Origin: Bdellovibrionota bacterium
GTDB taxonomy: Bacteria; Bdellovibrionota_C; UBA2361; SZUA-149; JAITKM01
Assembly: GCA_031548505.1 (NCBI GenBank)
Contig: JAVBQZ010000133.1
Span: 1 to 48,360, forward strand
DNA: 48,360 bases
Direction of reading: 5' to 3'
A model generated the notes under the pieces. The model did no database searches. It was not told the origin of the DNA and worked only from the letters and a program-made list of their open reading frames with translations. A program made the position numbers and the translations under genes. Shown piece by piece: positions 6,471 through 20,579 of the stretch (its first letter is position 1; each line of letters opens with the position of its first letter).

Positions 6471-6557
6471 CTTCTTTAACGAATTATGCAATTTTAAAGC
6501 ACAATTTCTACTACTGTAGATAGCCCGAAAGGGTACCTAACTTTAGGTTAGGATGAA

Positions 6558-6588
6558 TAGCCGGATTTAGTTCCGGCTATTTTTTTTT
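6558..6588 (+). terminator. Rho-independent terminator downstream of int
   Basis: tagccgga (6558-6565) pairs with tccggcta (6572-6579), 6-nt loop, followed by T9 (6580-6588). Confidence 0.7.
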
Positions 6589-6731
6589 CTTAGTTCCGCG
6601 ATAAAGTTTCTTACTTTTTCTATTTCGTCCTTACGCAAATAGAAAAATACAGCTTTACCTCGTTGTCCAGCAGGGAGTTTTTTTCTTCCTGAGCCTTCTC
6701 TAGAACCGCCCCAGTTTTCAGTCTTTTTCAT
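6567..6731 (-). CDS. Small basic protein, 54 aa (possible DNA-binding protein or recombination directionality factor)
   Basis: Below the ORF-track size cutoff. My translation: MKKTENWGGSREGSGRKKLPAGQRGKAVFFYLRKDEIEKVRNFIAELRKKNSRN. Its ATG overlaps the stop of the upstream gene by 14 nt. GGSREGSGRKK is an AT-hook-like motif common in small phage DNA-binding proteins. Confidence 0.35.
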   Translation of the reverse strand: MKKTENWGGSREGSGRKKLPAGQRGKAVFFYLRKDEIEKVRNFIAELRKKNSRN

Positions 6732-7674
6732 TTTTCCCTCCAGCAATTAGTGGTGGTATCCAATTATATTTTAATCTGCGTTCTGCATCTCGCTTACCAG
6801 TCCAAAAGCCATGCCAGTGACCACGCCTTAGATGCGTTCGCTTAGCCGAACCGAGCCTTGCATCTTCTTGTTCTGCAAGATAAAGTTTCTTGCCGATACC
6901 TTTCCCAACGTCCCAAAATATAGGCTTAGATTGCGGGAATATTTTCCAGCCGAATTTTGTTTTTTTCGGCCGCAATCGTTTTGGAAATTCGTTCGGTCGC
7001 TCTAAGTCTTCTATTTCGGGGGCATCGGAGCAGATATAAAGTAGAATAGAAATAATTGCTGAAACAAAAGTAACTGTGCGGTCAAATTCTTTTTTATCTA
7101 CTTCAAAATTTTCTTCAATAGTGCTTTCTATCGCTTCTGAAATTGTAATTTCCTTAAGCGGCAATCGAATTATAAACGGATCTTCTCGGTCGATATACAG
7201 TACTATTCTTTCATCCTGAGAAAGGATGTTGAATTCTAGCGTTACAAAGAAACCATCAATTTTTAAATCTGCAATCGTGCAGTTAGGCGTGCTGATGTAT
7301 AAGGCATATTCCGGCAACCTGTGAAGTACATCAATCGGAAAGTCGCCTTTAATTTCCGTGTCGATTAAGGCGGGAAGTAAGCTATTATCTATAGAATAGA
7401 TGCCTTGGCTATATTGCCAGGTGCCAGCAATCTGAAGATTGATAATTTCTTTGATAATATCATCGGGCGGAATATCTTCAGTGAATCCGTGTTTAGTCCG
7501 CGCCATACTTGTCCAGGCGTCAATTGGCAGAAAGCACCAGCTTGGACAGCGTGGCAAATCTTTACCCTTGCGCAATCTAAGGTCGTTAATCCATTGGTCA
7601 AGATGCGGATATTTGTTTTCAATCGAATTTACAAAACCTCGCAGTCGGTTTTTGATTTGGTTTTTGGTTTTCAT
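6718..7674 (-). CDS. Hypothetical protein, 318 aa, basic C-terminal HLRRGHWHGFWTGKR motif
   Basis: The long ORF is trimmed to ATG 7674 (MKTKNQ), 14 nt downstream of the stop of the preceding gene. No family recognised. Confidence 0.6.
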   Translation of the reverse strand: MKTKNQIKNRLRGFVNSIENKYPHLDQWINDLRLRKGKDLPRCPSWCFLPIDAWTSMARTKHGFTEDIPPDDIIKEIINLQIAGTWQYSQGIYSIDNSLLPALIDTEIKGDFPIDVLHRLPEYALYISTPNCTIADLKIDGFFVTLEFNILSQDERIVLYIDREDPFIIRLPLKEITISEAIESTIEENFEVDKKEFDRTVTFVSAIISILLYICSDAPEIEDLERPNEFPKRLRPKKTKFGWKIFPQSKPIFWDVGKGIGKKLYLAEQEDARLGSAKRTHLRRGHWHGFWTGKRDAERRLKYNWIPPLIAGGKNEKD

Positions 7675-7688
7675 TTTAATTATAAAAA

Positions 7689-8375
7689 TTAAAATTCTCC
7701 ACAAGATGCAAAGTCGTTATACTCTGCTCTGTAGTATGCACGGCATCTTATCGCGTCGTTATAGTCAAGAGCTCTTGTGCAAGCTACTTCTATGTCGCAG
7801 AATTCCTCTTCGATTGTCGTCGGGTGAACATCATAACAATATTGTCTGTATTTTTTCGACTCTATATACTCGTAAGCTTCGCTCTCATTATTGAAGCCGC
7901 CTTGAATTAATTCATCTGTGCTATCGTCAACCAAGCTCCAACTTCCGTCACATTCGCAAGGTGTTGGTCCAACATATTCTAGCGCCATCCTTTCATATTC
8001 TTCCTCGTCGTCAATTGAAGGCGTCCACTTCACGCACCTTGCAAGAATTTTTTCGCAGTCGTAGTCAACGACTGTTTCAACTTCTTTATTTGCCATTAGT
8101 TCGCGAATTATTCGCAAAGCTTCTTTTTCTGATTGTTCAATACGCGCGGAATGATACTCTTCACTATCTGCAGTGTAGTTATCCGGCAGATATTCGTTAA
8201 GTCTTGGATAATCGTAGACTTCGTTGCAGCTGTGCCTAATCCAGTTCGCAAGTTTTCTAACTGCGAATTCTTTCGCGTTTTGTTTTTTGAACTCGCCATC
8301 TTTTTTATTTTGCGGATTTTCAAAAACGATTGAATATAGTTGTTTTCTTGAGATTTTGCTTTCTTTTGTATCCAT
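7689..8375 (-). CDS. Hypothetical acidic, Cys-rich protein, 228 aa
   Basis: ATG 8375 is preceded by aggagag at a 7-nt spacing. The track start at 8393 is a TTG. Rich in D/E, with several Cys pairs (CECDGSW, CDIEVAC). Confidence 0.6.
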   Translation of the reverse strand: MDTKESKISRKQLYSIVFENPQNKKDGEFKKQNAKEFAVRKLANWIRHSCNEVYDYPRLNEYLPDNYTADSEEYHSARIEQSEKEALRIIRELMANKEVETVVDYDCEKILARCVKWTPSIDDEEEYERMALEYVGPTPCECDGSWSLVDDSTDELIQGGFNNESEAYEYIESKKYRQYCYDVHPTTIEEEFCDIEVACTRALDYNDAIRCRAYYRAEYNDFASCGEF

Positions 8376-8454
8376 GATTTTCTCTCCTATCAATTTCGAG
8401 AATTAATAAATTGTAGTGAACAACCTCAGTTATTCGCTACATCTATATTATGCA

Positions 8455-8493
8455 CTATTTCTTGATTTGTGTCAACTAAAAATCAAGAAATAG
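8455..8493. promoter_or_regulatory. Perfect 14-bp inverted repeat (possible operator or terminator)
   Basis: ctatttcttgattt (8455-8468) pairs with aaatcaagaaatag (8480-8493), 11-nt spacer. It lies about 60 nt upstream of the start of the 7689..8375 gene. No T-run on either side. Confidence 0.3.
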
Positions 8494-8615
8494 CAAAAAT
8501 AATTTTCTAATGATTTTAAATAGTTATAAAAAAAGTGTGAAATATTTTTTATTTTAGGGCGGAAAAAGTGGGGAAAATTGAGGGAGTGCCGGAGTTAGGG
8601 CTATATATATATACG

Positions 8616-8831
8616 TTATTCGCTCGAATTAATTTTCAAGATTTGGCGCTCTTCGACTTCTTCACATTCCGTAATACTATGCCTTAAATATTCACCTACA
8701 TTCCTCCAATATTCAGAAATTCCGTCCTCTTTATTTTTAGCATTATTATGCAGACGTGGATTGATAAGAAATGTAAAAGACGTTGCCCCTAGTGCCATCC
8801 CATACAGAAAGTTTTTAACTTTTTCGTTCAT
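8616..8831 (-). CDS. Hypothetical small protein, 71 aa, one hydrophobic segment
   Basis: Isolated ORF in an otherwise non-coding 0.7-kb stretch. Hydrophobic segment FLYGMALGATSFTFLI. Confidence 0.4.
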   Translation of the reverse strand: MNEKVKNFLYGMALGATSFTFLINPRLHNNAKNKEDGISEYWRNVGEYLRHSITECEEVEERQILKINSSE

Positions 8832-9128
8832 GGTTTACCTTTAGATTTTTTTTGCGATTACAACAAATAGTTACTTTAATCGCCTATTTATACATTATCA
8901 ATACTTTTTATACTTTTGTTGCATTTAATACAGATTTTGTTTCATATTTTTGTGTTTTTATGTAGGGTTTGTTGCAAAATAAAGCCTTTTTGAGGCAAAA
9001 AATCCACCCGATATAAAATTTTATGCCGATAACGGATATTATTATATTTCTAGAAGTAAAGAGGATATGGAAAGAGAGATTAGAAGATTTTAGGAGGCAG
9101 ATATCGTCTCAATAATTAAGAATGAGTT

Positions 9129-9662
9129 ATGGAAGAATTTTTAAAATATATAATTGACTTAGCACCAATTTGGGTTCCCACAGGGATATGTTTAGTTTTT
9201 AAATCTATTTTAAAAGCTGATTTACAGCAATATAAAAGCGAGCTTGAGAAAGAACTAAAGATTGTACAAAAAGATTTAGATATTCTCAAAAATAAAGACA
9301 TCGTTTGCCTACACGAGAAGATAAAGATATATCAGTCGGGAATTGATTTTATTGCTAAAACATTATCTGATTTTACCAAATTCGACTTTAGGCCTAATTC
9401 GTTAAAGTTGCCGACGCCTGAATATATGAGGGAGCTAAATACCGAGAGGCTAAAACTTTATGGGCGTATTGCCACGATCGCACCTCAATCATTAATAAAG
9501 GCACAAGATAGGCTGATAGACTATCTATTTGAAGTAGTAGAAGGGAAGATTGATTACAGCTGGGAAAATGAAGTGCGCCCTAGATCTTTAGAACTTCTCA
9601 ATGAAATTAGAAAAGACTTAGGGTTAAATACAGAAAAAATTTCTTATTTTGGGGAAAGGTAA
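9129..9662 (+). CDS. Hypothetical protein with N-terminal TM segment and coiled-coil region
   Basis: 177 aa. IIDLAPIWVPTGICLVF is followed by heptad-like sequence, LQQYKSELEKELKIVQKDLDILK. Confidence 0.5.
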   Translation: MEEFLKYIIDLAPIWVPTGICLVFKSILKADLQQYKSELEKELKIVQKDLDILKNKDIVCLHEKIKIYQSGIDFIAKTLSDFTKFDFRPNSLKLPTPEYMRELNTERLKLYGRIATIAPQSLIKAQDRLIDYLFEVVEGKIDYSWENEVRPRSLELLNEIRKDLGLNTEKISYFGER

Positions 9663-9670
9663 CCCCCCCT

Positions 9671-9700
9671 TAACACTACCCCTCTAAATGCTGTATAATG
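9671..9700 (+). promoter_or_regulatory. Sigma70-like promoter upstream of the Dit-like gene
   Basis: TTAACA (9671-9676), 18-nt spacer, TATAAT (9695-9700). The -35 shares TTAACAC with the three late promoters. A C7 run (9664-9670) lies directly upstream. Confidence 0.45.
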
Positions 9701-9735
9701 CTCCTGTAAAATAAAAACTCACACAGGAACACTAT

Positions 9736-10623
9736 ATGGCAATAGCAAACACTATACTCAACACCGCATCATCTATTAATTCAGTCGGGCAATACGCAGA
9801 AGCCATATACAACCAGTATATCGTGACGTCATCGACACTGCCGGAAGGCGTGCAAGGCTTTGTATTCGATATTTTCAAGGAAAATTCAATCGAGTTAGAA
9901 GCCGAAATCACCGACCATTACGTAGAAGATAATTCTTACATGCAGGACCATATTGCAGAGAGACCGGAACGTGTTTCATTGTCTGGTTTAGTTGGTGAGC
10001 TGACAATGCAAGACACTATTGGCAGTGTCAGAGATGCGCTAAATAGCGATAATTTGTCGGTTAGTGATGTTCTTAACAACAACGCATTGATTGATACTGC
10101 CACACAAAAGATGGGTATATTAGAAGCGTTATTACCGCCTTTATCTAATAGAGATTACAATCTATTTATGAAGGCACAAGATGCTTACAGACAGTCAACA
10201 GCATTGCTTAGAAAAGGGCAAGAACTGAATTTATACGAGTTATTTGAGCAAAAGGCAGTAGCGGTTACTAAGCAAGCAAAGGCGTTTCAGTTCTTTCAAG
10301 AGGCGTTAAAAAATAGAATCTCACTTATAGTTGTTACTCCGTTTCAGGAATTAGATAATATGTTCATTGAGAGCATACGCGCTAATAGGTCGGAGAGTAC
10401 CGGCGTTTCTAATTTTGAGGTTAGGCTTAAAAGGGTTAGGACTGCGCAAACTAAGGTTACGCAGAAAAAGGCAGTTGGTAGGACTGCTATGCAAAAGCAG
10501 GAGACGGTTGATCACGGGTTGGATAATGGGAAGAAGGTAAGTGATGAGATGAAAGCAACAATTGGTGCTGGTTACACTAGGGCGCTTTTTGGAGGTGATT
10601 TCGACTATAAGATAAAATTATAA
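9736..10623 (+). CDS. Putative tail/baseplate protein (Dit-like N-terminal domain)
   Basis: 295 aa. EITDHYVEDNSYMQDHIAERPERVSLSGLVGE and the later LIVVTPFQELDNMFIESI match my memory of a myophage tail-protein family (T.HPVEdGs.isDH...P..l.l.G; vvT...y.nM.i.s). From memory only. Confidence 0.5.
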   Translation: MAIANTILNTASSINSVGQYAEAIYNQYIVTSSTLPEGVQGFVFDIFKENSIELEAEITDHYVEDNSYMQDHIAERPERVSLSGLVGELTMQDTIGSVRDALNSDNLSVSDVLNNNALIDTATQKMGILEALLPPLSNRDYNLFMKAQDAYRQSTALLRKGQELNLYELFEQKAVAVTKQAKAFQFFQEALKNRISLIVVTPFQELDNMFIESIRANRSESTGVSNFEVRLKRVRTAQTKVTQKKAVGRTAMQKQETVDHGLDNGKKVSDEMKATIGAGYTRALFGGDFDYKIKL

Positions 10624-10698
10624 CAAGGATACATTAAGAGAACGATTACGCCAACATGAGTATGCCGGCACCGACGAGGTAGGGAAGGATATAATAAG

Positions 10699-11286
10699 TT
10701 ATGGTGTCACATGATTAGGTGTTGGATTAGGATAGTCTGGCAATCCAATTCGATTTATATAATTAGCAAATCTTTGCGATAGTTGTTCTCGAACTGGGAT
10801 ATTCAGAGACGTTTTATATTTTTCTTTATGATTATTATACAGCGAATTAAAAGAAACGGAGAAGTGTATTTTAAAATCAATAACTAAATCGGTTGGAAGT
10901 TCTGAAAGAGCAGAATTTATAAAGTGATATCTAGGGTCGCTGTTGCTTTTGATAAATTTAAACCTATCTTTGTTTAACTGATCTTGCTTTATACCAAATA
11001 TGTTAATTAGATGTTCCCCTAGTTTCAAAATATCTGCTTCAAAAATAGGCAAAATAAGAACATTGGGCAAAAACTGATGATTAAGAGATACATTATCCTT
11101 ATTTTTATGGTATTGGCATAAATCACAGTCTTGAGACATAATAGCTATATAAGGAAAGTTAAATTTTTTAACTAAATCGGTGCCGCCTATTTCGCTAACA
11201 ATAGTGGTTATGGTATATCCTCCTAATATATCTCCTTGGCATATTCTTTCTATAGGATCTTTTTTTATACAAAAGGTATTACTCAT
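10699..11286 (-). CDS. Hypothetical protein C of the three-gene operon, 195 aa
   Basis: Motifs CQGDIL, IAIMSQDCDL, LILPIF and a C-terminal LSQRFANYINRIGLPDYP. Its start overlaps the upstream stop by 8 nt. Confidence 0.65.
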   Translation of the reverse strand: MSNTFCIKKDPIERICQGDILGGYTITTIVSEIGGTDLVKKFNFPYIAIMSQDCDLCQYHKNKDNVSLNHQFLPNVLILPIFEADILKLGEHLINIFGIKQDQLNKDRFKFIKSNSDPRYHFINSALSELPTDLVIDFKIHFSVSFNSLYNNHKEKYKTSLNIPVREQLSQRFANYINRIGLPDYPNPTPNHVTP

Positions 11287-11488
11287 CGTCTATTTTAATT
11301 ACAGCAATAACCTTATTTCCAGATCTAGGTTTTACATAATCACTATTGATTTTATGGAGGTTTGGATTTTCTTTATATGTGTCCATATATGCCTCTCCCG
11401 CCTTTATATTAAATTTATACACAGCGTCATCCGTTATGATACGATAATCGCTGTTATTGTTATTCGCTTTTTTATATGTCATATACAA
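11279..11488 (-). CDS. Hypothetical small protein B of the three-gene operon, 69 aa
   Basis: Overlaps the upstream gene by 10 nt and the downstream gene by 8 nt, which suggests translational coupling. No family recognised. Confidence 0.55.
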   Translation of the reverse strand: MYMTYKKANNNNSDYRIITDDAVYKFNIKAGEAYMDTYKENPNLHKINSDYVKPRSGNKVIAVIKIDDE

Positions 11489-12228
11489 ATCCCTTTTTGA
11501 ACTAGAACATCACGTATATGTTTGTTAAACTCTATTTTAATTACTTGAGTATATGCTTCATTTAAATACTTATCCACATCGTCACTATAAAAATTAACAA
11601 CACACGCATCGTAGTCTAAAACAAATTCCTTTTGTTTTATTACAGCAGGAAAATAACTATTAAATAATCCAAAATTTATTGTTAAAGAAAAATCATCTTT
11701 ATTTAAAACTACTGCCTGCAGGTTTCTCCTAAGTTCTTCAGATGTTTTATAGCCGTCAAGAAACGCAATCACATCACTTGAGAAACAGTCCTTGTAATCT
11801 AATTGCAAGCTATTCAAGTTAAAAAGATTTATATATCTAAGTCCTAGCCTAAAGATATTTTTAACTTCAAGTTCTTTAATAAAAATAGATAATACCTTTT
11901 TTATTAGATCTTCTAACTTTTCGAAAGATGTATATACTAAGGTTTCGAAACCAATATTATTATAGTTAATTCTAATAATAACGTCTTGCAACGTCAGGAC
12001 GTGTTCTTGCAACATGATAACTCTAAAAGACTTAAGCTGTGAAGCTGTGTCGTCAGGGGAAAATACTGTCGAATTAACTACACTTGTCTTAATATCCGAG
12101 TATAGTGCCTGTATAGAGCTAACTATATTCCCAGATTTGGTCCCCCATGCCTCATGACTTACTGGTGGGATATCCAACCTGAATATAACATTAGTCTTAA
12201 AGCCATTTTCGTTGTTAATCTCTGCCAT
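11479..12228 (-). CDS. TIGR04255-like protein (protein A of the three-gene operon)
   Basis: 249 aa. The N-terminal NVIFRLDIPP and the internal RLGLRYINLF resemble the hallmarks of the uncharacterised TIGR04255 family (GLRYiN motif). From memory only. Confidence 0.6.
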   Translation of the reverse strand: MAEINNENGFKTNVIFRLDIPPVSHEAWGTKSGNIVSSIQALYSDIKTSVVNSTVFSPDDTASQLKSFRVIMLQEHVLTLQDVIIRINYNNIGFETLVYTSFEKLEDLIKKVLSIFIKELEVKNIFRLGLRYINLFNLNSLQLDYKDCFSSDVIAFLDGYKTSEELRRNLQAVVLNKDDFSLTINFGLFNSYFPAVIKQKEFVLDYDACVVNFYSDDVDKYLNEAYTQVIKIEFNKHIRDVLVQKGICI

Positions 12229-12539
12229 AATCGCCCTTGCCTTAAATAATTAAAATAAAATAATTAAAATACGAAAAATATCTGCGCCAATAATATTTGG
12301 AATATACTCATTATTGATACGTAATATAAGAGAACAATCGGAATATGTAAAAGACAATTTCATACTGTTATTAACAAAATTTAATCTAGTGTTTCATTTC
12401 TATCTAGCAATATAGCAAATGTCAATTTGATCATTCTTTTAGATGTTTATCCACTACTTAAAGTTGCTTAAATTCCATAGAATCAACGATTTAGCCTCCA
12501 TTTGAACTTTTTCATATTTTTATATAAGGTACACGCAGT

Positions 12540-12800
12540 TTGATTACGCGATTAATCAATCATATAAAATATAAAGGAGAATTATATATATTTAATTCCA
12601 TTATTTCAGTTTTCTGCATTGCAATAGGGATTATAATATTTGTTGTTTCTTTATTCGCAATATTGCCTTATGGAGCTATACAAGAGGCTGTCAAGTATCT
12701 TGCCTTTGTTTGTGCCTCAATTTTTCTTGTGGGTGATTTTATGTTGGGAATATTGAGTGACATTCTTATAGAGATTAGAAACACAAAAAATGTAGGGTGA
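12540..12800 (+). CDS. Small membrane protein, about 2 TM segments
   Basis: 86-aa ORF with a TTG start. Hydrophobic stretches IISVFCIAIGIIIFVVSLFAIL and LAFVCASIFLVGDFMLGIL. Its stop overlaps the GTG at 12797 of the next gene. Confidence 0.4.
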   Translation: MITRLINHIKYKGELYIFNSIISVFCIAIGIIIFVVSLFAILPYGAIQEAVKYLAFVCASIFLVGDFMLGILSDILIEIRNTKNVG

Positions 12801-14203
12801 TAAGAATGCTAATACCGAGCAATAAAAGTAAGTGGACGACTTTTGTATTGATGATATTTTTAGGTATGTTTGGTGTCCACAGACTTTATACAAAAAATTA
12901 TAAAACGTTTTCCATTTATGTAATTCTTTGGTGTATTGTATATAACAGTCCGTCACAAGGGAATACATCCACAATTTTTACTGTTTTTATTATTCTCTAT
13001 TGGCTTACCGATATAGTTGTTTTTTTGTTTTGGACGATAAAATTAGCTATTTTTGGTAACTCTAAAAGCGAGATAGTAAGTAACTCAATTCATAACATTA
13101 GTGCAAACGGAGAAGACAGCATAACCCAAACAGAGCTAATGTGTGCGGGTAATAAAATTTTATTGCATCCAGACTTGCATGGGCTAGTTTGGATTGCAGA
13201 TGGCAAATATAGAAACTACAATGGGGAAGTTAGTAATAAACAAAATATCTCAACAGTTGGAGGTAACTTTACAATTTCATTCAGCTTTAACGATAATTTT
13301 GGGGCAGTAGGCGTTGAAGAGCCAAGTTTGATATATACAAAACTAGAACTAACCAAGCCTAGAACATCAGTTGAACGCCCATCTTATTTCCCAAGCTATA
13401 GCGGACTAACTCCAGGGCAGCGGTGGACATATCTACAACTATTAATAAATCCATACGATATGAGCATTGATATAGGATATGTGTTTGTCCTATATTATGG
13501 ACTAGAAAGGCATCTTTTGCTTGGTGATTTTGATAGGGCATTTGAAGCAATTTTAAAACTCCGTGATGTTCATCAAAACAAATCATTTCAATTTTATTCG
13601 GCTAATGCGCTAATCCTAGCATCTATGATGCATAAACGTGGAGAGAAACTGCTAGACTTTGTTAATTCTCTTGATAAGGAGTATGAATATAATTTCTCAA
13701 ATAATTTGTTTTTAATTTGTTATTATAGTTTTGGCATACCATTGCAAGCCGGAAATATAATGAGAATGGCCAAAATGGCTGATTTTTCAAATACTAACTA
13801 CATAAAAAAATACCCTGGTATTTTTTGCGCTACATTGTCGGATGTTTTACTTGAAAAGTATGGAGAAAGTAACATTTTACTGAGTAAGATTATAGATATA
13901 TCTGAATTAGAAAAAATAAAACACGAAAAATCAAATATTTTTGCTAATGTATCAATTATTGACGTAAAAATACATGTTCCTATTTTGGACAATAATCCCA
14001 AGTTAAAAAAAGCAATGAATTCATTGCTTAAAGAAGCGCACAGTAGAACCAAGGTAAAATTATCAGCAATGAGGAAAGACGGAACTCTAGAGAAATATAA
14101 TGAGAAGAAAATAGAAATAAAGAAAATAGAAATAAAGAAAATAGAAACCGCGAATTCTGAAAATAATTTAAATATTTTTGGCGAGCCAGTAGAAACAGAT
14201 TAA
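12797..14203 (+). CDS. TM2-domain / TerB_N-domain fusion membrane protein
   Basis: 468 aa from GTG 12797, or from ATG 12806. N-terminal TM2 signature FVLMIFLGMFGVHRLYTKNY plus further TM segments. Central YFPSYSGLTPGQRWTYLQLL...IGYVFVLYYGLERHLL matches the TerB N-terminal domain pattern. C-terminal (KKIEI)x3 repeat. Confidence 0.7.
   Translation: MIRMLIPSNKSKWTTFVLMIFLGMFGVHRLYTKNYKTFSIYVILWCIVYNSPSQGNTSTIFTVFIILYWLTDIVVFLFWTIKLAIFGNSKSEIVSNSIHNISANGEDSITQTELMCAGNKILLHPDLHGLVWIADGKYRNYNGEVSNKQNISTVGGNFTISFSFNDNFGAVGVEEPSLIYTKLELTKPRTSVERPSYFPSYSGLTPGQRWTYLQLLINPYDMSIDIGYVFVLYYGLERHLLLGDFDRAFEAILKLRDVHQNKSFQFYSANALILASMMHKRGEKLLDFVNSLDKEYEYNFSNNLFLICYYSFGIPLQAGNIMRMAKMADFSNTNYIKKYPGIFCATLSDVLLEKYGESNILLSKIIDISELEKIKHEKSNIFANVSIIDVKIHVPILDNNPKLKKAMNSLLKEAHSRTKVKLSAMRKDGTLEKYNEKKIEIKKIEIKKIETANSENNLNIFGEPVETD
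14105..14149 (+). repeat. Tandem repeat, 3 x 15 bp (aagaaaatagaaata), within the CDS
   Basis: Units at 14105-14119 and 14120-14134 are identical. The unit at 14135-14149 differs in its last 2 nt. Encodes KKIEIKKIEIKKIE. Confidence 0.9.
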
Positions 14204-14339
14204 TTATTTAATATAGCCTAATTAGGCTTGTCCTGTTTTTACATACAATTATAATTATAAAGATGATATTAGCTGAAATGAGCCCAAGGACATCTAATTA
14301 ATTTTATAACCCCTACTATACTAACTCAATTGGAGTTTT

Positions 14340-14747
14340 ATGAACAAAACAATTATCATAACAATATTCCTTGCCCTACTAACCTCGTGCACGGATAAGG
14401 CTACTAAGCTCTGCGAAGAAACTATAGATGACAAAAAATATTGTAAGTGCATTGTCAAAGCAGCCAAAGATAATGGGGTTGATGAGGTTGAAGATTTCAT
14501 CACCGTTGCTAGTGACGATGAAGCGAGGCAGGAATATAAACGTATGTTGCTATTTAGCGGTGGCATTAGTGAGAAAGCATCTCGTTACTTAAAAGTAATA
14601 GGGGATATTGATAACTTTTGTGCAATGAGTAGGTCAATGAGAGAAATTGAAAGCGATATGAAAGAGCAGAGAAAGTATATAGAATCGCGAGGCAAGACTT
14701 CAGTGCCTGAAAAATGGCGCGATGGAACGCTTGGAGAAGGTATTTAA
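14340..14747 (+). CDS. Lipoprotein (prophage moron)
   Basis: 135 aa. Signal plus lipobox MNKTIIITIFLALLTSC. Convergent with the tape measure gene, with 3 nt between the stops. Confidence 0.6.
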   Translation: MNKTIIITIFLALLTSCTDKATKLCEETIDDKKYCKCIVKAAKDNGVDEVEDFITVASDDEARQEYKRMLLFSGGISEKASRYLKVIGDIDNFCAMSRSMREIESDMKEQRKYIESRGKTSVPEKWRDGTLGEGI

Positions 14748-14750
14748 TAT

Positions 14751-16106
14751 TTAAATATTCGGGCTGTTAATTTGCATTATTGTGCTACTTAGGGCATTGC
14801 TTAGGTTTTCCTCTGCCGCTTTATACATATTGTCCAAAAACTCCTGCGGGTTTTTGAGATCGGCTGGTATAGTTATATTTTGAGTAACACTAACGTTATT
14901 GTTTGTTGGGTTAGTAGCTTCGTGTTTTTTGATTATTCCCATTAAATTAGAATAGCCCACATAGCGTCTATCTTTTGCGCTGTAAGAAAGCCCCCCTGTT
15001 TTTTCGTCAAAATTTACTAAACCATATTGCATCATTTTGTAATGAAAATCGTCTAATTTATCTTGTCCTATCTCTTCATTTGTTTTGCCACTTCCAAATG
15101 TCCTGCTACGTAAATCTGTCACAATTACTTCGTTCAAGTTTATTTTTGCCTGTTCTAATTGCGCTCTTCTTTTCTGGGCATGTTTGCTATCCTTGCCCCA
15201 AAAATCTTCTGCATGTTTAAGTTCCGCTTCAAAGCTGTCTATATCATCTTTTGCTTTTTTATATTTAGCTGATTGCACGATGTCATTAGCAACAGAGTTT
15301 GGATTGCCGCTTAATACAGCCTTAGCTTCATTAATCAGCATTATTCCCATCCCAAAAACAGCTAAAAGCGGTGCTTTTATCGCTGCTAACACGCCGCCCG
15401 CGACAAGCAATATTTTAGCAACATTCTCCCAGCCGCCAAGCGCGTCAGCAAATTCATTTCCCATTTCGCGCAAGTTTTCAAATGTGTTTATTAGTGGCTT
15501 AGTCAATGTATCGCTAGAAATTATTTTCTTCCACATACCTGACATTTCAAGCTTAAGCAGTCGCCAAGAATGATTGAGTTCCATCACATTATCCCTATCT
15601 TCCTTTGTTAGCTGTAATTTCTTAAACCTTTCTAACTCATCGGCGGATTGATGCATTAGCAAGACCATTTCAGGACTTACTCCGAGCTTGCCTAAGTATT
15701 CGTTTCTAACTCCAGCATTCTTGATTTTGTCAGCGCGCTTGATGATTTGCTCTAATTTAGCGAAAGCGTCAGTATTCGGATTTATGCCGAACATCATCTG
15801 TGTTTTTTGAGCGTTGAAGCTAGATAAATTCTTCAATGAGCTTTCCAACGCGCTAACTTCTACACCTGCTAGTTTAGCGCGTGTTTCCCATTCCTGAAAT
15901 TTATCTGCATTGATGCCGGATAGCTTTTGAATTTTATCGAGATGCGCAACGTAGTCCATCGTTTCGCCAGCGAGCTGTTGAAATACACGTCCTACGCTTT
16001 TAATGCCCTGTTCAAGCACCATTATTTGCCCTAAGGCTTGATTTAGTCCCTTGTTAAAGCCTTGCGGGTTTATGCCGAGTTCAATGAATGCTTCACCTAG
16101 TTTCAT
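14751..16106 (-). CDS. Tail tape measure protein
   Basis: 451 aa, largely helical. Has an internal hydrophobic Gly/Ala segment, ILLVAGGVLAAIKAPLLAVFGMGIML. Lies immediately downstream of the tube and chaperone genes. Confidence 0.8.
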   Translation of the reverse strand: MKLGEAFIELGINPQGFNKGLNQALGQIMVLEQGIKSVGRVFQQLAGETMDYVAHLDKIQKLSGINADKFQEWETRAKLAGVEVSALESSLKNLSSFNAQKTQMMFGINPNTDAFAKLEQIIKRADKIKNAGVRNEYLGKLGVSPEMVLLMHQSADELERFKKLQLTKEDRDNVMELNHSWRLLKLEMSGMWKKIISSDTLTKPLINTFENLREMGNEFADALGGWENVAKILLVAGGVLAAIKAPLLAVFGMGIMLINEAKAVLSGNPNSVANDIVQSAKYKKAKDDIDSFEAELKHAEDFWGKDSKHAQKRRAQLEQAKINLNEVIVTDLRSRTFGSGKTNEEIGQDKLDDFHYKMMQYGLVNFDEKTGGLSYSAKDRRYVGYSNLMGIIKKHEATNPTNNNVSVTQNITIPADLKNPQEFLDNMYKAAEENLSNALSSTIMQINSPNI

Positions 16107-16251
16107 ATTTCGCCCTTAATTTCGCATTATATTCAGTTTCGTAATCAGCTAAAAAGTTCTCAAACCCCTTCATCTTTAGCACTACATCAGTAGGCATTGC
16201 CCTAAGTTCATTATAACTTCCGTAACCTTTCTTAACTAAGTTAAATAACAT
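16093..16251 (-). CDS. Frame -1 extension of the tail assembly chaperone, or an independent 52-aa ORF
   Basis: The frame -1 relative to 16278..16721 is open from about 16290 to the stop at 16093-16095, some 66 codons. It overlaps the tape measure start. There is an internal ATG at 16249-16251. Confidence 0.4.
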   Translation of the reverse strand: MLFNLVKKGYGSYNELRAMPTDVVLKMKGFENFLADYETEYNAKLRAKYETR

Positions 16252-16277
16252 ATAATCGAAGTCGTTCTGTTCTCCCT

Positions 16278-16721
16278 TTATTTTTGCGGCATCTCGTTCG
16301 ATTTCTCGCTCGTATTCTCTCCCTGCGTTTGTGCGAATAACTTCAATGCCGCTTCGGGTAAAAAAGGGGATACGTTCTCCTTGCCGATATGATAAACAAC
16401 AGGGAAGAAGTCTTTGCGCGCTTTAACGTCTTCAAAGAGCTCAGGTTCAACGATAGCACCGTTATACTGGCAACGCCTACCACATTTCCAAATAACATTT
16501 AAAACGTCATCAGATGTGAATACGCCTGTAATCGTCTTGATTATAGTATCTGCGTTACTGGCAATGATGTTAGATAAATCAGAACCTAAATCTAATTTAT
16601 CTAATTTAATTCCTCTTGTTTCTATGTTGCGTTGTAAGGCTTGAAATAACTCAAGCCCGGTAGCAAAATCAGCAATGGTAATATCTAATTTTGCACCGCT
16701 ATTTAGTTTTATTTTTTCCAT
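16278..16721 (-). CDS. Tail assembly chaperone
   Basis: Trimmed to ATG 16721 (MEKIKLNSG), 19 nt after the tube gene stop. Lies between the tube and tape measure genes and has a downstream overlapping frame. Confidence 0.6.
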   Translation of the reverse strand: MEKIKLNSGAKLDITIADFATGLELFQALQRNIETRGIKLDKLDLGSDLSNIIASNADTIIKTITGVFTSDDVLNVIWKCGRRCQYNGAIVEPELFEDVKARKDFFPVVYHIGKENVSPFLPEAALKLFAQTQGENTSEKSNEMPQK

Positions 16722-16740
16722 AAATAAATTTATTGTAGAT

Positions 16741-17196
16741 TTAAGATAATACGCGCTTGACGTTTCCAAAATTAAAACTATAAACACTAACGACTTGCTC
16801 AACATCGCCTTCAGTATTTACTTTTGTTTCTACTGCTTTTGATGGAACGCCAAATTCGCAATCATAGATGTCGTTACTAACCTGTCCTGTGCCATCGCTA
16901 AAACGCTTAGTGATTGCGGCTGAGACAACTCTGAACGCTACCGAATCTTGCTCGTAAGAATTTATAATGCTCTGCAAAAACTTATCGTCAGTGCTCGCAC
17001 GAACTACTCTAAGTTCTAACGCACCTACCTTGCCTGATTGGTTAGGCGAGTGAATAACGTTGCCATTATAACCTCTAGTTGTCGTGGATAAATCAGATCC
17101 GAATGTTAATACTCCAACATCCGCATTTGCTAAGTCTGCGAGTATGCGCCCATTAATAATTACGCTGTCTTTCCCACTTAAAGTTACAGTTGCCAT
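16741..17196 (-). CDS. Tail tube protein
   Basis: 151 aa, directly downstream of the sheath gene. Size and position are typical; I recall it as DUF3277-like. Confidence 0.65.
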   Translation of the reverse strand: MATVTLSGKDSVIINGRILADLANADVGVLTFGSDLSTTTRGYNGNVIHSPNQSGKVGALELRVVRASTDDKFLQSIINSYEQDSVAFRVVSAAITKRFSDGTGQVSNDIYDCEFGVPSKAVETKVNTEGDVEQVVSVYSFNFGNVKRVLS

Positions 17197-17214
17197 ATTT
17201 TTAGTCTCCTTTTA

Positions 17215-18366
17215 TTACGCTTCAATATTGATAATTAAACTTGCGCTATGAATTGCGCCTGCCTCTTTACATGCTACTTGAATTAACGGTGCTTTTCTTT
17301 CCTCTCGTTCGATTTGCAGTTGTTCGGTGATAGGTTGGCTCCAGATATAGAAACCAAAATCATGAACGTTACGCCTTAAATCTTCAGCGTTGCCAAAGAA
17401 GTCAGGACTGTTCCAAGTACCTGGTGCTAAGAATGCATTACGCACGCCTTGCTTTAGGATTTCGCGTACAGAATTTTTTAGCAAATCCATTCCGTTTTCT
17501 GTTTGTGGAATTTTAGTTCGAGTAGTGGCCAATGTATTGAACCCTGCAACTTCAAGCGAATTTTCAAGCCACAAACGGTTATAAACGCTGTCAAAGAAAA
17601 GCGTGTTACTATTGCTTACAACCTTAGGCACGCCTTCGTAAGATACATATAAATCAACACCTACCGCTGTCGCTTGGTCATATATTGTTTGGTCCATGCC
17701 TAAGTCAGGAGATATGCCTGTCAGATCTTTTAAGTTCATAGTTTGCGTAGTGTTATTACCTGCAAATTGTGTAGAAAATGCACGTCCTGCATACGCGCCA
17801 AGCATATTCAATTTTTCAGTATCTTGCGTGTAGAGAAGTATCTTAGTTTTGAAGTTGCCTTTATCATAAACCCATTTACCAGCACCAGTTCCGGTAAGTG
17901 TTCCAATGTCGCTAGTCACATAAATCAATATATGCTTTAAGGCCTGCACCGTATCAGAAGCTGCTAATAATTCATCGTCATCAACTTCTTTGTTAGTGAT
18001 TATTCCGGCGGTATAAACAAGGCTATCAACGCGCAAAATTGCGTCCGATAAATTTTCGATAACTTCCTCTTCTGTTTCTTCGTCAACAGTAACGTTTAAA
18101 GGCGCGATAATAAATGAGCCTCCAGCTGTGACCATATTTTGTCCTTGCATAAATGCTGATAGTGCAATCTTGTAAGTGGAACTATTAGTGCCAAAATCCT
18201 TAGCTACTTCGGTTACGGATTTATAAGTTCTGTAACCGGCTTCAAAAGCCGTTTCCGGCTGGTCGATAGTGAGTAAAGTTACAGTGTTCATATTGCGTTG
18301 CCCAAGCGCACGTGATGCGCCTGAAACACTAACTGTAATTACGTTGCTTAAACTTAATTCTGCCAT
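17215..18366 (-). CDS. Contractile tail sheath protein
   Basis: 383 aa, upstream of the tube gene. I recall it as a DUF3383-type sheath. Confidence 0.7.
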   Translation of the reverse strand: MAELSLSNVITVSVSGASRALGQRNMNTVTLLTIDQPETAFEAGYRTYKSVTEVAKDFGTNSSTYKIALSAFMQGQNMVTAGGSFIIAPLNVTVDEETEEEVIENLSDAILRVDSLVYTAGIITNKEVDDDELLAASDTVQALKHILIYVTSDIGTLTGTGAGKWVYDKGNFKTKILLYTQDTEKLNMLGAYAGRAFSTQFAGNNTTQTMNLKDLTGISPDLGMDQTIYDQATAVGVDLYVSYEGVPKVVSNSNTLFFDSVYNRLWLENSLEVAGFNTLATTRTKIPQTENGMDLLKNSVREILKQGVRNAFLAPGTWNSPDFFGNAEDLRRNVHDFGFYIWSQPITEQLQIEREERKAPLIQVACKEAGAIHSASLIINIEA

Positions 18367-18383
18367 ATTGTTTTGTCCTTTAA

Positions 18384-18893
18384 TTATTGGTTGTAAATCA
18401 CATTAACATTGTATTTATCGTAGTAGTCGATAGACTTAGTCTTATTATACATTGTCAAACACCTAATGTTAATATCGTATCGTTGTAACATTGCCGTTTC
18501 TTCTAAAAAACTTAGTTCAGTTGCCTGACTAATATTAGCAATGTGAAATCCGTATTTTTCTTGAATCTGTTGCGCGTACGTGGACGCGAGAGCCATCATA
18601 ATTTCAGGCAATCTTAAATCTGCTTCCTGGCCCTTAGAACATACGCTGATAACGATATTCTCCTGCATATTAATTGATTGATGTTCTTCTAATCCGTCGT
18701 CGCTTTCTTTAGTTCGGTTGTTGTTAGCGTAAACAATTGGGCTTCTACGCGCTATAATCACAAACGCTTTTTTATCCTTTGGTAATGTTTGGTTTTGATT
18801 AGAGGACCAAACGCGCCCGGCAGTAATATCGGTTTCATGCAGAACAATATCCCGAATTATTTCTATGAGCGGTTTATTCATTATCATCCTCAA
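18384..18893 (-). CDS. Neck / tail terminator-type structural protein
   Basis: About 165 aa. The likely start is MNKPLIEI at 18881. The call rests on position between the connector genes and the sheath gene. Confidence 0.45.
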   Translation of the reverse strand: MRMIMNKPLIEIIRDIVLHETDITAGRVWSSNQNQTLPKDKKAFVIIARRSPIVYANNNRTKESDDGLEEHQSINMQENIVISVCSKGQEADLRLPEIMMALASTYAQQIQEKYGFHIANISQATELSFLEETAMLQRYDINIRCLTMYNKTKSIDYYDKYNVNVIYNQ

Positions 18894-19221
18894 AGGCTTC
18901 GGTTATATGGTATTCAAGATAACCGTAATCGCTGTAATCTAACCTTGCCATTACTTTGTATCTTAAATCTTTGTATAAAATGTAGCTTCCGATTTCTAAT
19001 CTAACATCAGGTAAGCAATGCACTTGTCTGTATTCCCAGTAGCGCGCACCCTCAGGAAGTATCTTTGCAGCAGAAGCCCCGAAAGGTTGAATAATGCCAC
19101 GTGTATCGATGTTGGTAATATTTTCTTTCAAATATCCGTTGACGTTTTCCTCTCTTACAACGCCAAAAGTAAGCGGCTCAAACCAATCGTTAAAATCTGT
19201 GAATACGTTAGGCACTGCCAT
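18874..19221 (-). CDS. Head-tail joining structural protein
   Basis: 115 aa. Its ATG shares 1 nt with the upstream stop. The call rests on position only. Confidence 0.45.
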   Translation of the reverse strand: MAVPNVFTDFNDWFEPLTFGVVREENVNGYLKENITNIDTRGIIQPFGASAAKILPEGARYWEYRQVHCLPDVRLEIGSYILYKDLRYKVMARLDYSDYGYLEYHITEAFEDDNE

Positions 19222-19766
19222 TATATATACCTCTTAACTTTTTTAGTTTCGACTTTAAATTTTATCGACCTAATCATTTTACCAGTATCGATTAAGGGCT
19301 TGTTTAACCCTGCCATCGCTTCCCCAAGTGTTTGGTCTTTCTTAAGTCGCAAATTAGTTTGAGTGCCTTTTTTATTAGTTCTAAAACGTCTCTTTGCTCT
19401 CGCTTCAACTGTCGCGGGGTTAAGCTCAGGCGTTGTAATGCTTTGTATCTTTTCAATCAGATTATCTTTAATAACCTGACCAATATTTTTAAACGCGCCT
19501 TCGAGCGAAATCTGTTCTTTCATTACGCCAACTAATTGCCCATCTAATTCTTCAACCCACTTTTTGCCTTTCTCCTCAATTGTAGGTTGCATAAATGGAC
19601 GGGCAGGAATGCCTCTACTAATTGAGCCAAACTCCTGCGTTGCGGCAATCATCGCAATGGATGTACCATCATCATATTTTGCATCCTCGAACCAACCAAC
19701 CTTAACCGAAGTATCATCCAAGTTTTTTTTAAAACGCTTAAACCCGGAGCTTTCGGTAAATTTCAT
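19221..19766 (-). CDS. HK97 gp10-like head-tail adaptor / tail completion protein
   Basis: Trimmed to ATG 19766, which forms an ATGA overlap with the upstream stop. IAATQEFGSISRGIPARPFMQPT matches the HK97 gp10 family pattern. Confidence 0.6.
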   Translation of the reverse strand: MKFTESSGFKRFKKNLDDTSVKVGWFEDAKYDDGTSIAMIAATQEFGSISRGIPARPFMQPTIEEKGKKWVEELDGQLVGVMKEQISLEGAFKNIGQVIKDNLIEKIQSITTPELNPATVEARAKRRFRTNKKGTQTNLRLKKDQTLGEAMAGLNKPLIDTGKMIRSIKFKVETKKVKRYI

Positions 19767-20191
19767 TCCAATATCCTTTGAGAACCGCCGATATATAATC
19801 CAGACGCAGGAACTTTTACTTGAAGTAACGCAAGTAATCTTTGTCCGTACCCAGTTTGGTTCAGCCAAAAATCTAATTCGTTTTTATTAGTCGGGGCTAC
19901 AAAGGATACCGACACACTACCAGCCGATTTACTTGCAACAGTTCCGCCTGCTGCGCCACTGCCACTCAATGCTTTGTTATTAAGAATAAGTAGGTGAGCT
20001 ACTAACAACATGATAGCTAATCTTCTTGACTCCCCGTTGAGCATCCAAGCAGGATTATTATCAGGAGATATGTAACATTCTGCTTGAATGATAAAAGACT
20101 GAATCACAGCATCAGGATATTTAGTTTCGTCCGCAAACTCTGGGAACACTTCTCTAAATTCATCAACTGTGATTACAATCTTGTTAGTCAT
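19763..20191 (-). CDS. Head-tail connector (DUF4054-like)
   Basis: 142 aa. The N-terminus, VITVDEFREVFPEFADETKYPDAVIQSFIIQAECYI, matches my memory of DUF4054. Confidence 0.55.
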   Translation of the reverse strand: MTNKIVITVDEFREVFPEFADETKYPDAVIQSFIIQAECYISPDNNPAWMLNGESRRLAIMLLVAHLLILNNKALSGSGAAGGTVASKSAGSVSVSFVAPTNKNELDFWLNQTGYGQRLLALLQVKVPASGLYIGGSQRILE

Positions 20192-20579
20192 TCTTTTTCT
20201 TGTTCTTTTTAGCTTCTGTTTCTTCTCCGCCTACAACAGCTGGTGGAGTTTGTCCTTTGCCTTCAAAGTCCTCATCAGTTAATTGCGATGAGCCGTCCTT
20301 TTCTTCCATGTCACTAGTGTCCTTTTTCCCCGCCTTTTGAATCTTAATGAATCCGTTTCGCTCATGCTTTTGAAACACCTTGTTTTGTTTTAGAGCCTCT
20401 AATTCCGTATCAGTAACAGAAGTAGTAACACCTTCAGGCGTTACTAAAGTAACTTTATTAGTTACCCCAGTTCCGCCTGTAACGGTTACTTGCTTTGTAA
20501 TTACGCTGGACCCAGATGGACTCTTCTCATAAATATTATAAACCACATCAGTCGCCATTGTACTTGTTATAAGTGCCAT
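20184..20579 (-). CDS. Hypothetical head-associated protein
   Basis: 131 aa, downstream of the capsid gene. Thr/Val-rich N-terminus and a charged C-terminus. Confidence 0.45.
   Translation of the reverse strand: MALITSTMATDVVYNIYEKSPSGSSVITKQVTVTGGTGVTNKVTLVTPEGVTTSVTDTELEALKQNKVFQKHERNGFIKIQKAGKKDTSDMEEKDGSSQLTDEDFEGKGQTPPAVVGGEETEAKKNKKKND

Follow-up and report, generated by a model that had tools for sequence, protein, structure and literature searches.

A prophage of a Bdellovibrionota bacterium carries a gene (12797..14203, + strand) whose product joins a TM2-containing membrane module to an intact TerB_N-type core. The core belongs to a very large family of proteins that are carried as cargo on mobile elements and are recurrently anchored in the membrane with the core facing the cytoplasm. 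This fusion gene is found in an island of low GC content in the prophage, within the window of 48,360 nucleotides (the whole of the DNA analyzed, contig JAVBQZ010000133.1). In our reading, the fusion gene is a prophage moron, an accessory cargo gene rather than a virion or lysis gene, and most likely protects the lysogen by exclusion or membrane-level defense. This reading is drawn from context, and we hold it tentatively, at somewhat less than an even chance.

The fusion gene and its prophage island

The prophage spans 38.4 kb (5265..43709, no strand assigned) and is bounded by 54-bp exact direct repeats (5265-5318 and 43656-43709), with the att repeat overlapping the 3' end of tRNA-Asn. SecY and tRNA-Asn genes flank it in a host of roughly 35-40% GC. 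The att repeats, an integrase gene (5463-6470), the tape-measure gene and other phage genes bear out the prophage setting proposed in the first-pass annotation. The tail tape-measure gene (14751..16106, - strand; phrog_9570, E=1.2e-10) is preceded by sheath and tube genes, the sheath gene matching phrog_205 at E=8e-65. About 550 bp separate the fusion gene from the 3' end of the tape-measure gene, and the tail operon is encoded on the other strand. The island that holds it has 31.5% GC, compared with 38.7% in the structural genes. It is located between the tape-measure gene and tail-like genes, inside the att-bounded prophage, and in composition and insertion it fits what is expected of a moron. 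Between the fusion and tape-measure genes is a predicted lipoprotein of 135 aa (14340..14747, + strand) with a signal peptide and an LTSC lipobox, which has no significant family match. No sister phages emerged from a megablast of positions 9000-17000 against GenBank phages, and IMG/VR scans with the tape-measure protein and a 295-aa tail-like protein found no relatives.

Both open reading frames of the first-pass annotation are present on the + strand, one of 86 aa (12540..12800) and one of 468 aa (12797..14203), and the TGA stop of the former (12798-12800) overlaps the GTG at 12797 as described. The fusion protein has 468 aa if translated from GTG 12797 and 465 aa if translated from ATG 12806. 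The ATG is the likelier start because an SD-like GGGTGA lies 5 nt upstream of it, and the database copy of the protein (P0001, 465 aa) begins there. The 86-aa frame starts with TTG behind a weak RBS and is predicted to form a two-TM hairpin with basic residues at either end. When 12229-12800 is resampled with matched composition, 2.1% of the resamples yield a frame of this length (p about 0.02). Homologues were found neither by word-indexed search nor by tblastn in the fetched loci, and the frame is absent among the called proteins of the protein collection. We treat the 86-aa frame as a putative gene with weak support. The two-gene module that had been suggested is not supported, as the frame is an orphan that is not kept beside any relative of the fusion gene.

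The fusion gene is transcribed away from a three-gene operon on the - strand, whose frames of 249, 69 and 195 aa run with overlapping stops and starts from 12228 down to 10699, as first annotated (10699..12228). The 249-aa protein belongs to the TIGR04255 family (E=5.6e-13), and the operon gave no PADLOC match. The divergent region between them (12229..12539, no strand assigned) measures 311 bp at 26% GC, in keeping with the AT-rich stretch of ~310 bp noted earlier, and contains a 14-bp tandem repeat in two copies (12244-12271). Promoter-like hexamers in 12229-12539 are no more frequent than in shuffled background. At the other end, a short hairpin followed by a T-rich tail (14215..14228, + strand) lies 12 nt past the stop of the fusion gene and may be a weak terminator, although hairpin/T-tail sites of this kind are no more numerous than in shuffled background. 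The (KKIEI)x3 repeat reported at the C-terminus was located at 14105-14147 (+ strand), where a 15-bp unit is repeated in 2.9 copies with a 100% match. In the AF2 model, the repeat falls within a C-terminal helix (430-455) of falling pLDDT, beyond the conserved core.

The membrane module

The TM2-plus-TerB_N architecture was recognized correctly at first pass, since both domains exceed their Pfam cut-offs. The TM2 match (PF05154, E=5e-10) covers aa 9-45 (12821..12931, + strand) and profile positions 2-38 of 51, scoring 39.9 bits against a gathering score of 27.9. According to the AF2 model, the N-terminus forms three helices (aa 10-28, 35-49 and 57-87). The complete membrane module would be aa 10-87, consisting of the TM2 domain and one further helix. 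From the model and a tally of hydrophobic segments, the first two predicted helices are joined by a 6-residue loop, and the loop region between the TM2 helices is basic and aromatic (HRLYTKNY). With other TM2 proteins the fusion protein shares a significant Pfam match and two helices linked by a short basic-aromatic loop. Bacterial TM2 proteins are typically small and stand alone, whereas here the TM2 domain anchors a protein of 468 aa and a third helix comes after it. The module also matches phrog_8793 (E=2e-6), and phage TM2-like PHROGs without assigned function match it weakly. Word-indexed search returned no close sequence relatives of the three-helix module, and neither this search nor tblastn in the fetched loci gave homologues of the N-terminal 115 aa. 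The segment that follows (aa 88-119; 13058..13153, + strand) has a pLDDT of 37-41 and is probably a flexible linker.

The charges of the fusion protein are +3 at the N-terminus and +3 in loop 1, so that the topology is not fixed by the charge of this protein alone. N-terminal TM segments occur in 21 of 123 family ORFs (about 17%), namely in 10 of 33 viral loci and 11 of 90 others, and in every anchored member inspected, basic residues come after the last helix. Therefore, the core of the anchored members is located on the cytoplasmic side. The anchors themselves are heterogeneous short hairpins across the family. In the database survey of the architecture proposed at the outset, the TM2-TerB_N combination was found only in this protein, with no TM2 anchor among ~260 further proteins and 123 ORFs from the loci.

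The TerB_N-type core and its family

The TerB-N domain was reportedly defined by Anantharaman et al. in 2012. In the fusion protein, the Pfam match to it (PF13208, E=1.7e-8; aa 173-258; 13313-13570, + strand) scores 34.9 bits against a cut-off of 25, which upholds the original assignment, and is partial, covering profile positions 29-127 of 207. The family alignment and a pLDDT mostly >90 delimit a larger conserved core at aa ~120-430 (13154..14086, + strand). The C-terminal ~200 aa, formerly left unassigned, thus belong to one conserved family core of ~310 aa. Invariant motifs in the core are EPS (175-177), YYGLER (233-238), FANxS (382-386) and H415/K419, and the fusion protein retains all 55 of the 55 family columns conserved at ≥80%.

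Relatives share 46-64% identity with the fusion protein over aa ~120-430. The core family comprises >1,100 clusters at 50% identity in bacteria and archaea, with about 50% identity between phyla and 31-48% in archaea, and the Pfam TerB_N match is present in 88/88 family representatives. The usual member has about 500 aa, made up of the core and a ~150-aa TPR-like tail, and most are soluble. The fusion protein shares with these standalone TerB N-terminal domain-containing proteins the core and the habit of traveling as mobile-element cargo; it differs in adding the TM2 three-helix anchor and in having, instead of the TPR-like tail, a 38-aa tail with the KKIEI repeat.

Foldseek searches for solved-structure or viral relatives of the core in PDB and BFVD returned non-significant helical-repeat noise. 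PDB sequence and profile searches returned TPR proteins only, through the C-terminal tail of the family, which the fusion protein lacks. No enzymatic or binding fold was recognizable in the core by either route.

Elements that bear an integrase or a recombinase, prophages and integrative elements alike, carry the family members as cargo. Frequent neighbors are XRE/ImmA-type regulators, toxin-antitoxin genes and HsdR. Neighbor clustering in 80 genome and 33 viral loci yielded no universal partner gene. Members occur on 33 IMG/VR viral contigs. In two unrelated contractile-tail phages (L118 and L119), a TM-anchored member lies inside the sheath-tube-chaperone-tape-measure block, in L118 exactly between the chaperone and tape-measure genes. 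The place within the tail module differs between phages (behind the chaperone, tube or tape-measure gene), a variability typical of morons and not of conserved structural genes.

Comparison with known defense and exclusion systems

Shango has been shown experimentally to be anti-phage (PMC10250203), and its SngA protein is the TerB_N-containing subunit of SngABC. The fusion protein matches the PADLOC SngA profile with E=1.9e-11 and 42 bits (aa 148-409 against profile positions 63-269), the match covering only the N-terminal half of the 528-position profile. All 88 of the 88 family representatives match SngA, the sole PADLOC family matched on the core. The two cores are therefore homologous but distantly so. 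Shango, in addition, has the SngB ATPase and the SngC helicase, whereas the fusion protein is standalone, membrane-anchored and prophage-borne. No neighbor of SngB or SngC type was detected in the window by PADLOC, Walker A motif or Pfam ATPase/helicase match, and a link to ATPase or nuclease partners, described in the first-pass annotation as usual for TerB_N proteins, found no support in the locus (PADLOC, Walker A scan). Such neighbors are also missing from most related loci, a helicase being adjacent in 3 of 80. Because the helicase or ATPase partner is absent here, and no partner is universal in the 80 + 33 loci, we rejected a Shango-like operon. A link to CBASS was likewise rejected, since a cyclase gene stands beside the closest homologue only (P0002, locus L088) and not in the 80 genome loci, as judged by BLAST of low sensitivity; no CD-NTase/SMODS cyclase was found in the window.

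Two membrane systems offer parallels in design. HK97 gp15 is an inner-membrane exclusion protein whose gene lies between the chaperone and tape-measure genes (PMC3594210). Both it and, in our reading, the fusion gene are prophage morons adjoining the tape-measure gene and encoding inner-membrane proteins, the location of the fusion protein being predicted, and the anchored member of L118 fills the same chaperone-to-tape-measure slot as gp15. The gp15 protein is small and YebO-like, without a large cytoplasmic domain and with no sequence kinship to the fusion protein, and exclusion has been demonstrated for gp15 only. In SNIPE, a variable membrane anchor and a conserved cytoplasmic domain act on injecting phage DNA via the tape-measure protein (PMC13190303). 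SNIPE consists of a TM anchor, DUF4041 and a GIY-YIG nuclease; the fusion protein has no Pfam match to DUF4041 or the GIY-YIG nuclease at E≤1. Common to the two is a logic in which the anchor varies, the cytoplasmic domain is conserved and soluble homologues are numerous. Within the family, P0244 resembles the SNIPE design in having two TM segments, the core and an Mrr nuclease that replaces the usual tail.

Discussion

We favor a defensive role because the fusion gene lies in a low-GC, moron-like island, its core belongs to a mobile-element cargo family, the core is a distant homologue of SngA, and anchored members of the family occur beside tape-measure genes. We infer from this setting that the gene is expressed in the lysogen, that it serves defense and that it acts at an early stage of infection. 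In the mechanism we propose, the three-helix N-terminal module would anchor the protein in the inner membrane, and a flexible linker of about 30 aa would lead to the ~310-aa core at the cytoplasmic face. The core may recognize or block incoming phage or mobile DNA at or near genome entry, with the anchor supplying localization. By analogy with HK97 gp15 or SNIPE, the outcome would be superinfection exclusion or membrane-level defense.

A bolder version, which we think improbable enough to offer only as a conjecture, extends this to the core family as a whole. The family would then be a huge single-gene immunity or exclusion family, structurally unprecedented, acting at the cytoplasmic membrane face as the genome enters. 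Its members might, for instance, engage the incoming DNA, or tape-measure or pilot proteins that have been ejected. Interchangeable anchors would bring the core to the membrane in different lineages, the TM2-anchored protein being an example encoded by a prophage. Most members are soluble with TPR-like tails, which means that the family as a whole cannot work by acting at the membrane.

Alternatively, the protein may act by abortive infection, which we regard as unlikely. The core would sense a cue and trigger oligomerization of the TM2 module, possibly with the 86-aa protein, and the membrane would be permeabilized or depolarized so that the infected cell dies before the phage cycle ends. Sensors combined with TM helices are common in defense effectors such as Cap1 (PMC12642688), and the TerB-containing Dionysus system has the pore-forming DinC. 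The Mrr nuclease of P0244 also fits a core that serves as a sensor with swappable effectors. P0219 has an S_4TM effector-like N-terminus, but the match is weak (E=0.005) and under Pfam's threshold. The gene for P0002 follows a SMODS+AGS_C cyclase gene at a distance of 49 bp, but this adjacency is not seen in the 80 genome loci, which were searched by BLAST only. The heterogeneous short hairpins of the family look like tethers rather than pores, the 86-aa frame is unconserved, and most family members lack any effector-like domain.

A role in serving the phage itself appears less probable still. The gene might act in genome delivery, tail-membrane interaction, anti-host-defense or element upkeep, and its expression would follow that of late or early phage genes. 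The anchored members of L118 and L119 are co-oriented with the late tail genes, in L119 with gaps of just 64 and 31 bp, and thus could be of use to the phage. Six viral contigs carry the family gene between the genes for the large terminase and the portal, oriented as these are, and two members have a Phage_Mu_F-like C-terminal region. The family, however, is found just as often on integrative elements that are not phages and in archaeal chromosomes that lack virion genes. In addition, the position within tail modules varies as described above, and the fusion gene has the opposite orientation to the tail operon and stands in an island of foreign composition.

It is very improbable that the locus is a lysis cassette, with the 86-aa protein as holin, the 468-aa protein as a signal-anchored lysin or lysis regulator and the lipoprotein as spanin. 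The order of a small 2-TM frame, a membrane protein and a lipoprotein does resemble that of holin, endolysin and spanin, small TM2-like proteins are known in phages, and a weak and partial match to an endolysin PHROG (E=6.8e-6) was obtained for the 295-aa protein nearby. The prophage, however, has a clear endolysin gene elsewhere, with a lipoprotein-like neighbor (28446-29030; phrog_7, E=3.9e-29), and on this ground we rejected the cassette as largely refuted. Moreover, archaea whose walls are not of murein also have the core family, the core is joined in other members to TPR or to Mrr, a cytoplasmic nuclease, the anchored forms face the cytoplasm, and the core has no similarity to any muralytic fold or family. 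Tellurite or metal-stress resistance for the lysogen, which the domain name alone suggests (TerB_N is defined by occurring N-terminal to TerB in some proteins), is the least probable of all, as the fusion protein has no Pfam match to TerB (PF05099) or TerB_C at E≤1, the window yielded no ter genes, and the family is found among mobile elements and defense-type genes, not in metal resistance loci.

TerB_N has been a component of one validated defense system, Shango, and suggestions in the papers examined go no further than 'membrane surveillance'. The fusion gene and its relatives present the TerB_N core as a standalone gene that is extremely widespread, strongly conserved, borne on mobile elements, repeatedly membrane-anchored and repeatedly located in tail modules next to tape-measure genes. 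Even if it does not act in defense, the family still ranks among the larger conserved families of mobile-element cargo that lack a function or known fold. If such proteins do block entry, phages would be under selection to carry the gene, and its repeated insertion next to tape-measure genes would be a mark of that selection. If the fusion protein is a single-gene exclusion or defense protein, it would offer a simple and tractable handle on TerB_N function, and would add a common, currently unannotated family to the annotation of defense systems and prophages.

Results

The TM2-TerB_N gene (12797-14203, plus strand) was read in the first-pass annotation as a 468-aa ORF with a GTG start, overlapped at this GTG by the TGA of an 86-aa ORF on the same strand (12540-12800, TTG start), and both ORFs lie where it had placed them. 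In the public protein collection, the protein (P0001, hereafter the window protein, numbered in the 468-aa frame) is a 465-aa product starting at ATG 12806. GGGTGA is located 5 nt upstream of this ATG and no such element precedes GTG 12797, so ATG 12806 appears to be the likelier start. The two domains proposed for the protein exceed their curated Pfam thresholds: TM2 (PF05154) matches aa 9-45 with E=5e-10 and 39.9 bits against a threshold of 27.9, and TerB_N (PF13208) matches aa 173-258 with E=1.7e-8 and 34.9 bits against 25. The annotated KKIEI repeat is a perfect 15-bp tandem repeat encoding (KKIEI)3 (14105-14147). The AT-rich divergent region, estimated at ~310 bp, measures 311 bp with 26% GC, and three overlapping minus-strand ORFs lie beyond it. 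A perfect 14-bp x2 tandem repeat, AAATAATTAAAATA (12244-12271), is located in this intergenic region near the start of the 249-aa gene and could be an operator-like element or an AT-rich chance occurrence.

The 86-aa ORF encodes a predicted 2-TM hairpin whose ends are basic, and its position would suit coupling to the large gene; its ribosome-binding site is weak. ORFs of this length arise by chance in ~2% of composition-matched resamples, and it may be a real gene. It is absent as a called protein from the public collection, and no homologue was found among 5.8 billion clusters or beside any relative of the large gene. By this comparison the ORF is not a conserved partner, and the pair, presented earlier as a two-gene module, should not be treated as one.

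An AlphaFold2 model of the window protein, made from 49 homologues, has a mean pLDDT of 78.8. Three N-terminal helices (aa 10-28, 35-49, and 57-87) are followed by a disordered linker (aa 88-119, pLDDT about 40) and a confidently folded body (aa ~120 to ~440, mostly pLDDT >90). Besides a helical bundle and a long terminal helix, this body contains a beta-hairpin, an extended proline-rich stretch, and a small sheet. A word-indexed search returned 497 proteins, the best with 46-64% identity across 66-81% of the query, and an exhaustive search over 1.84 billion cluster representatives gave 1,182 matches at E<=1e-3, of which 306 reached E<=1e-30. Nearly all of these exhaustive-search matches align over residues ~120-430. 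The alignments indicate that this span, the core, is a single evolutionary unit and that the Pfam TerB_N model covers just part of it. The 200-aa C-terminus, previously left unassigned, is therefore the second half of the core and not a separate region. Invariant or near-invariant polar motifs include EPS 175-177, YYGLER 233-238, R256, N261, and S263, as well as FANxS 382-386, H415, and K419. All 55 columns conserved at 80% or more among 126 diverse relatives are kept in the window protein, an intact family member under constraint rather than a decayed fusion. Foldseek searches with the core gave helical-repeat noise only, with best E=0.9 against the PDB and 1.2 against BFVD, and PDB sequence and profile searches found only TPR proteins, through a C-terminal tail of the family that the window protein does not have. 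The core has no detectable relative among solved structures.

A typical family member is ~500 aa long, its core preceded by a short N-terminus and followed by a ~150-aa TPR-like tail; core-only forms of ~340 aa are also present on long contigs. Among 88 diverse representatives, TerB_N is found in all 88, TPR_1 in 12, Phage_Mu_F in two, and Mrr_cat, a HicB-like domain, and TM2 in one each, the TM2 protein being the window protein. Since none of the 123 family ORFs from the fetched loci carries a TM2-like motif and no close relatives of the window TM2 module were found, the fusion is, within this sampling, unique to the window protein.

Membrane anchoring itself is not unique. TM calls come from a simple hydropathy window and from AF2 helices; the hydropathy scan placed N-terminal TM segments in ~40 of 260 family proteins and in 21 of the 123 locus ORFs (10/33 viral and 11/90 other, uncorrected for redundancy). 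The inspected anchors are of two kinds: hairpins of two helices flanked on both sides by basic residues, and single N-terminal helices with no charge before them and a K/R cluster after them. This charge layout fits the positive-inside rule with a core that would be cytoplasmic in both types, in agreement with the soluble majority and with the cytoplasmic Mrr nuclease of the relative P0244. P0244 (641 aa) consists of a 2-TM hairpin, a ~200-aa helical spacer, the core, and a C-terminal Mrr_cat domain (E=1.9e-27); relatives in loci L062, L068, L072, L075, and L108 share its hairpin, spacer, and core. The charge tally on its own does not settle the orientation of the window protein. Because the protein has three helices and an uncharged second loop, its N-terminus would lie outside, with the TM2 loop and the C-terminal core inside, consistent with the family.

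The window holds a complete prophage of ~38.4 kb. A 54-bp exact direct repeat marks the att sites (5265-5318 and 43656-43709) and overlaps the 3' end of tRNA-Asn (43660-43735, minus strand); the integrase (5463-6470) adjoins the left copy, and SecY (44178-45527) lies directly outside. Minus-strand genes encode RecE-/RecT-like, large terminase, portal, MuF-like, baseplate, protease, major head, sheath, and tape-measure proteins. Their order (14751-38201) is unusual: terminase, portal, MuF, a 1153-aa tail-fibre-like gene, endolysin, and baseplate, then protease, major head, sheath, tube, and the short tape-measure gene. Further tail-like genes (9129-10623) are found beyond the island on the opposite strand, and an inversion or rearrangement may lie behind this arrangement. 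The 844-aa portal protein (34428-36962, minus strand) has a C-terminal extension (aa ~670-840) matching an ADP-ribosyltransferase exoenzyme-toxin PHROG (phrog_3895, E=1.1e-8). Outside the prophage, a 399-aa ORF (1046-2245, plus strand; GC 42%, above its surroundings) weakly matches a HipA/YjjJ-like toxin kinase (E=1.3e-12, far under the curated cut-off).

The tape-measure gene (14751-16106, minus strand, 451 aa) is immediately followed by a mixed-orientation island (10699-14747) with 31.5% GC, compared with 38.7% in the structural genes. It contains the 86-aa ORF, the TM2-TerB_N gene, a divergent operon of three genes whose stops and starts overlap (10699-12228, minus strand; 249, 69, and 195 aa), and, between the TerB_N and tape-measure genes, a gene for a 135-aa predicted lipoprotein, MNKTIIITIFLALLTSC... 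(14340-14747, plus strand), with a promoter-like site ahead of it (14228-14255). The 249-aa product, the first of the operon, belongs to the TIGR04255 family (E=5.6e-13); the three products gave no PADLOC match and no significant Pfam or PHROG match. The operon is low in GC like the rest of the island and may represent a further accessory or defence candidate. The lipoprotein matched no family, and no island neighbour of the TM2-TerB_N gene gave a PADLOC match or carries a Walker A motif. Prophage lipoproteins placed in this way are often exclusion proteins of the Ltp, Cor, and Llp types.

Family members reside on mobile elements. Relatives are found in an element with a tyrosine integrase, family-A DNA polymerase, and serine recombinase (P0014), within an integrase/Phage_CRI element adjoining HicAB (P0019), and beside ParE together with a fragment of an ADP-ribosyltransferase toxin (P0025). 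Eighty loci from species-representative genomes, with identities of 31-56%, come from many bacterial phyla and also from several archaeal orders. Neighbour clustering of naively called ORFs across them found no universal partner gene; integrases are neighbours at 12 loci, XRE-type regulators lie directly upstream at 10, a giant SF1 helicase directly upstream at three, and HsdR is a neighbour at three, in counts that, like the viral ones, are not de-replicated. The gene for P0002, the closest homologue (core identity 64%; L088 360-3158, Logan contig ERR14947308_1327008), lies 49 bp past a gene for a SMODS+AGS_C (CBASS-type) cyclase and overlaps another ORF on its downstream side; by BLAST only, this association was not seen at other loci.

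Among 33 IMG/VR contigs with family members, XRE regulators are upstream at nine (one also with an ImmA-like metalloprotease), with tyrosine integrases at eight and serine integrases at five. In six related phages (L092, L095, L096, L097, L100, and L105), the gene for a soluble ~505-aa member sits between the large terminase and portal genes, with roughly 90 bp separating it from either. In two different contractile-tail phages, members anchored by 2-TM hairpins, not TM2, are located in the tail block, which reads sheath, tube, XkdN-like chaperone, TerB_N (7590-8810), and tape measure in L118, and sheath, tube, TerB_N (7278-9119), XkdN-like chaperone, and tape measure in L119. Together with the window, anchored members thus occupy three separate placements, at differing positions, in or beside the tube-to-tape-measure block.

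Discussion

Among PADLOC families, SngA of Shango alone matches the core, in all 88 representatives and in the window protein (E=1.9e-11, aa 148-409 on profile positions 63-269 of 528). Shango, which comprises a TerB-like protein, an ATPase, and a helicase, has demonstrated anti-phage activity and is mechanistically unexplained (PMC10250203); its discoverers proposed "membrane surveillance" (bioRxiv 10.1101/2022.05.11.491447). The window locus, however, has no ATPase or helicase partners and lacks the C-terminal half of SngA, which rules out membership in Shango. The locus is a standalone, distant relative.

Two other systems resemble the window protein in design or position, not in homology. 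The gene for HK97 gp15, the original moron, has the tail assembly chaperone gene on one side and the tape-measure gene on the other. The protein inserts into the inner membrane, and its exclusion of superinfecting phages depends on the tail (PMC3594210). The anchored member of L118 occupies exactly this slot. In SNIPE, the N-terminal membrane anchors vary and the cytoplasmic domain is conserved; this domain engages the tape-measure protein as well as entering DNA (PMC13190303). The membrane-bound restriction-endonuclease design of P0244 is reminiscent of SNIPE.

These analogies fit the reading that we tentatively favor, a prophage moron that would protect the lysogen at or near genome entry. 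The anchor would tether the protein at the inner membrane with its core facing the cytoplasm; expression in the lysogen, the topology, a target, and an effector step are what we infer for such protection. Genomic context and distant homology make a defence or exclusion role plausible. Of the membrane-anchored exclusion or defence module first proposed, the TM2-TerB_N architecture holds by Pfam, but the pairing with the unconserved 86-aa ORF does not.

Alternatively, the protein might be an abortive-infection switch with its helices as the effector, which we consider unlikely. A role in serving the phage itself, which the co-orientation of the anchored members with late genes in L118 and L119 would favor, seems improbable. 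The 2-TM ORF, membrane protein, and lipoprotein could be read as a lysis cassette, but the prophage endolysin (28446-29030) lies 14 kb away, and this reading is largely refuted. Tellurite or metal resistance of the lysogen has no support because the window protein has no TerB domain proper.

The window protein represents a new architecture, with a TM2 anchor and no TPR tail, in a large conserved family of standalone TerB_N-core proteins. The single window locus is not extraordinary. It is the family-level pattern that makes the role of TerB_N directly testable with one gene: the family is broad and strongly conserved, anchoring with the core towards the cytoplasm recurs, and so does insertion next to tape-measure genes.
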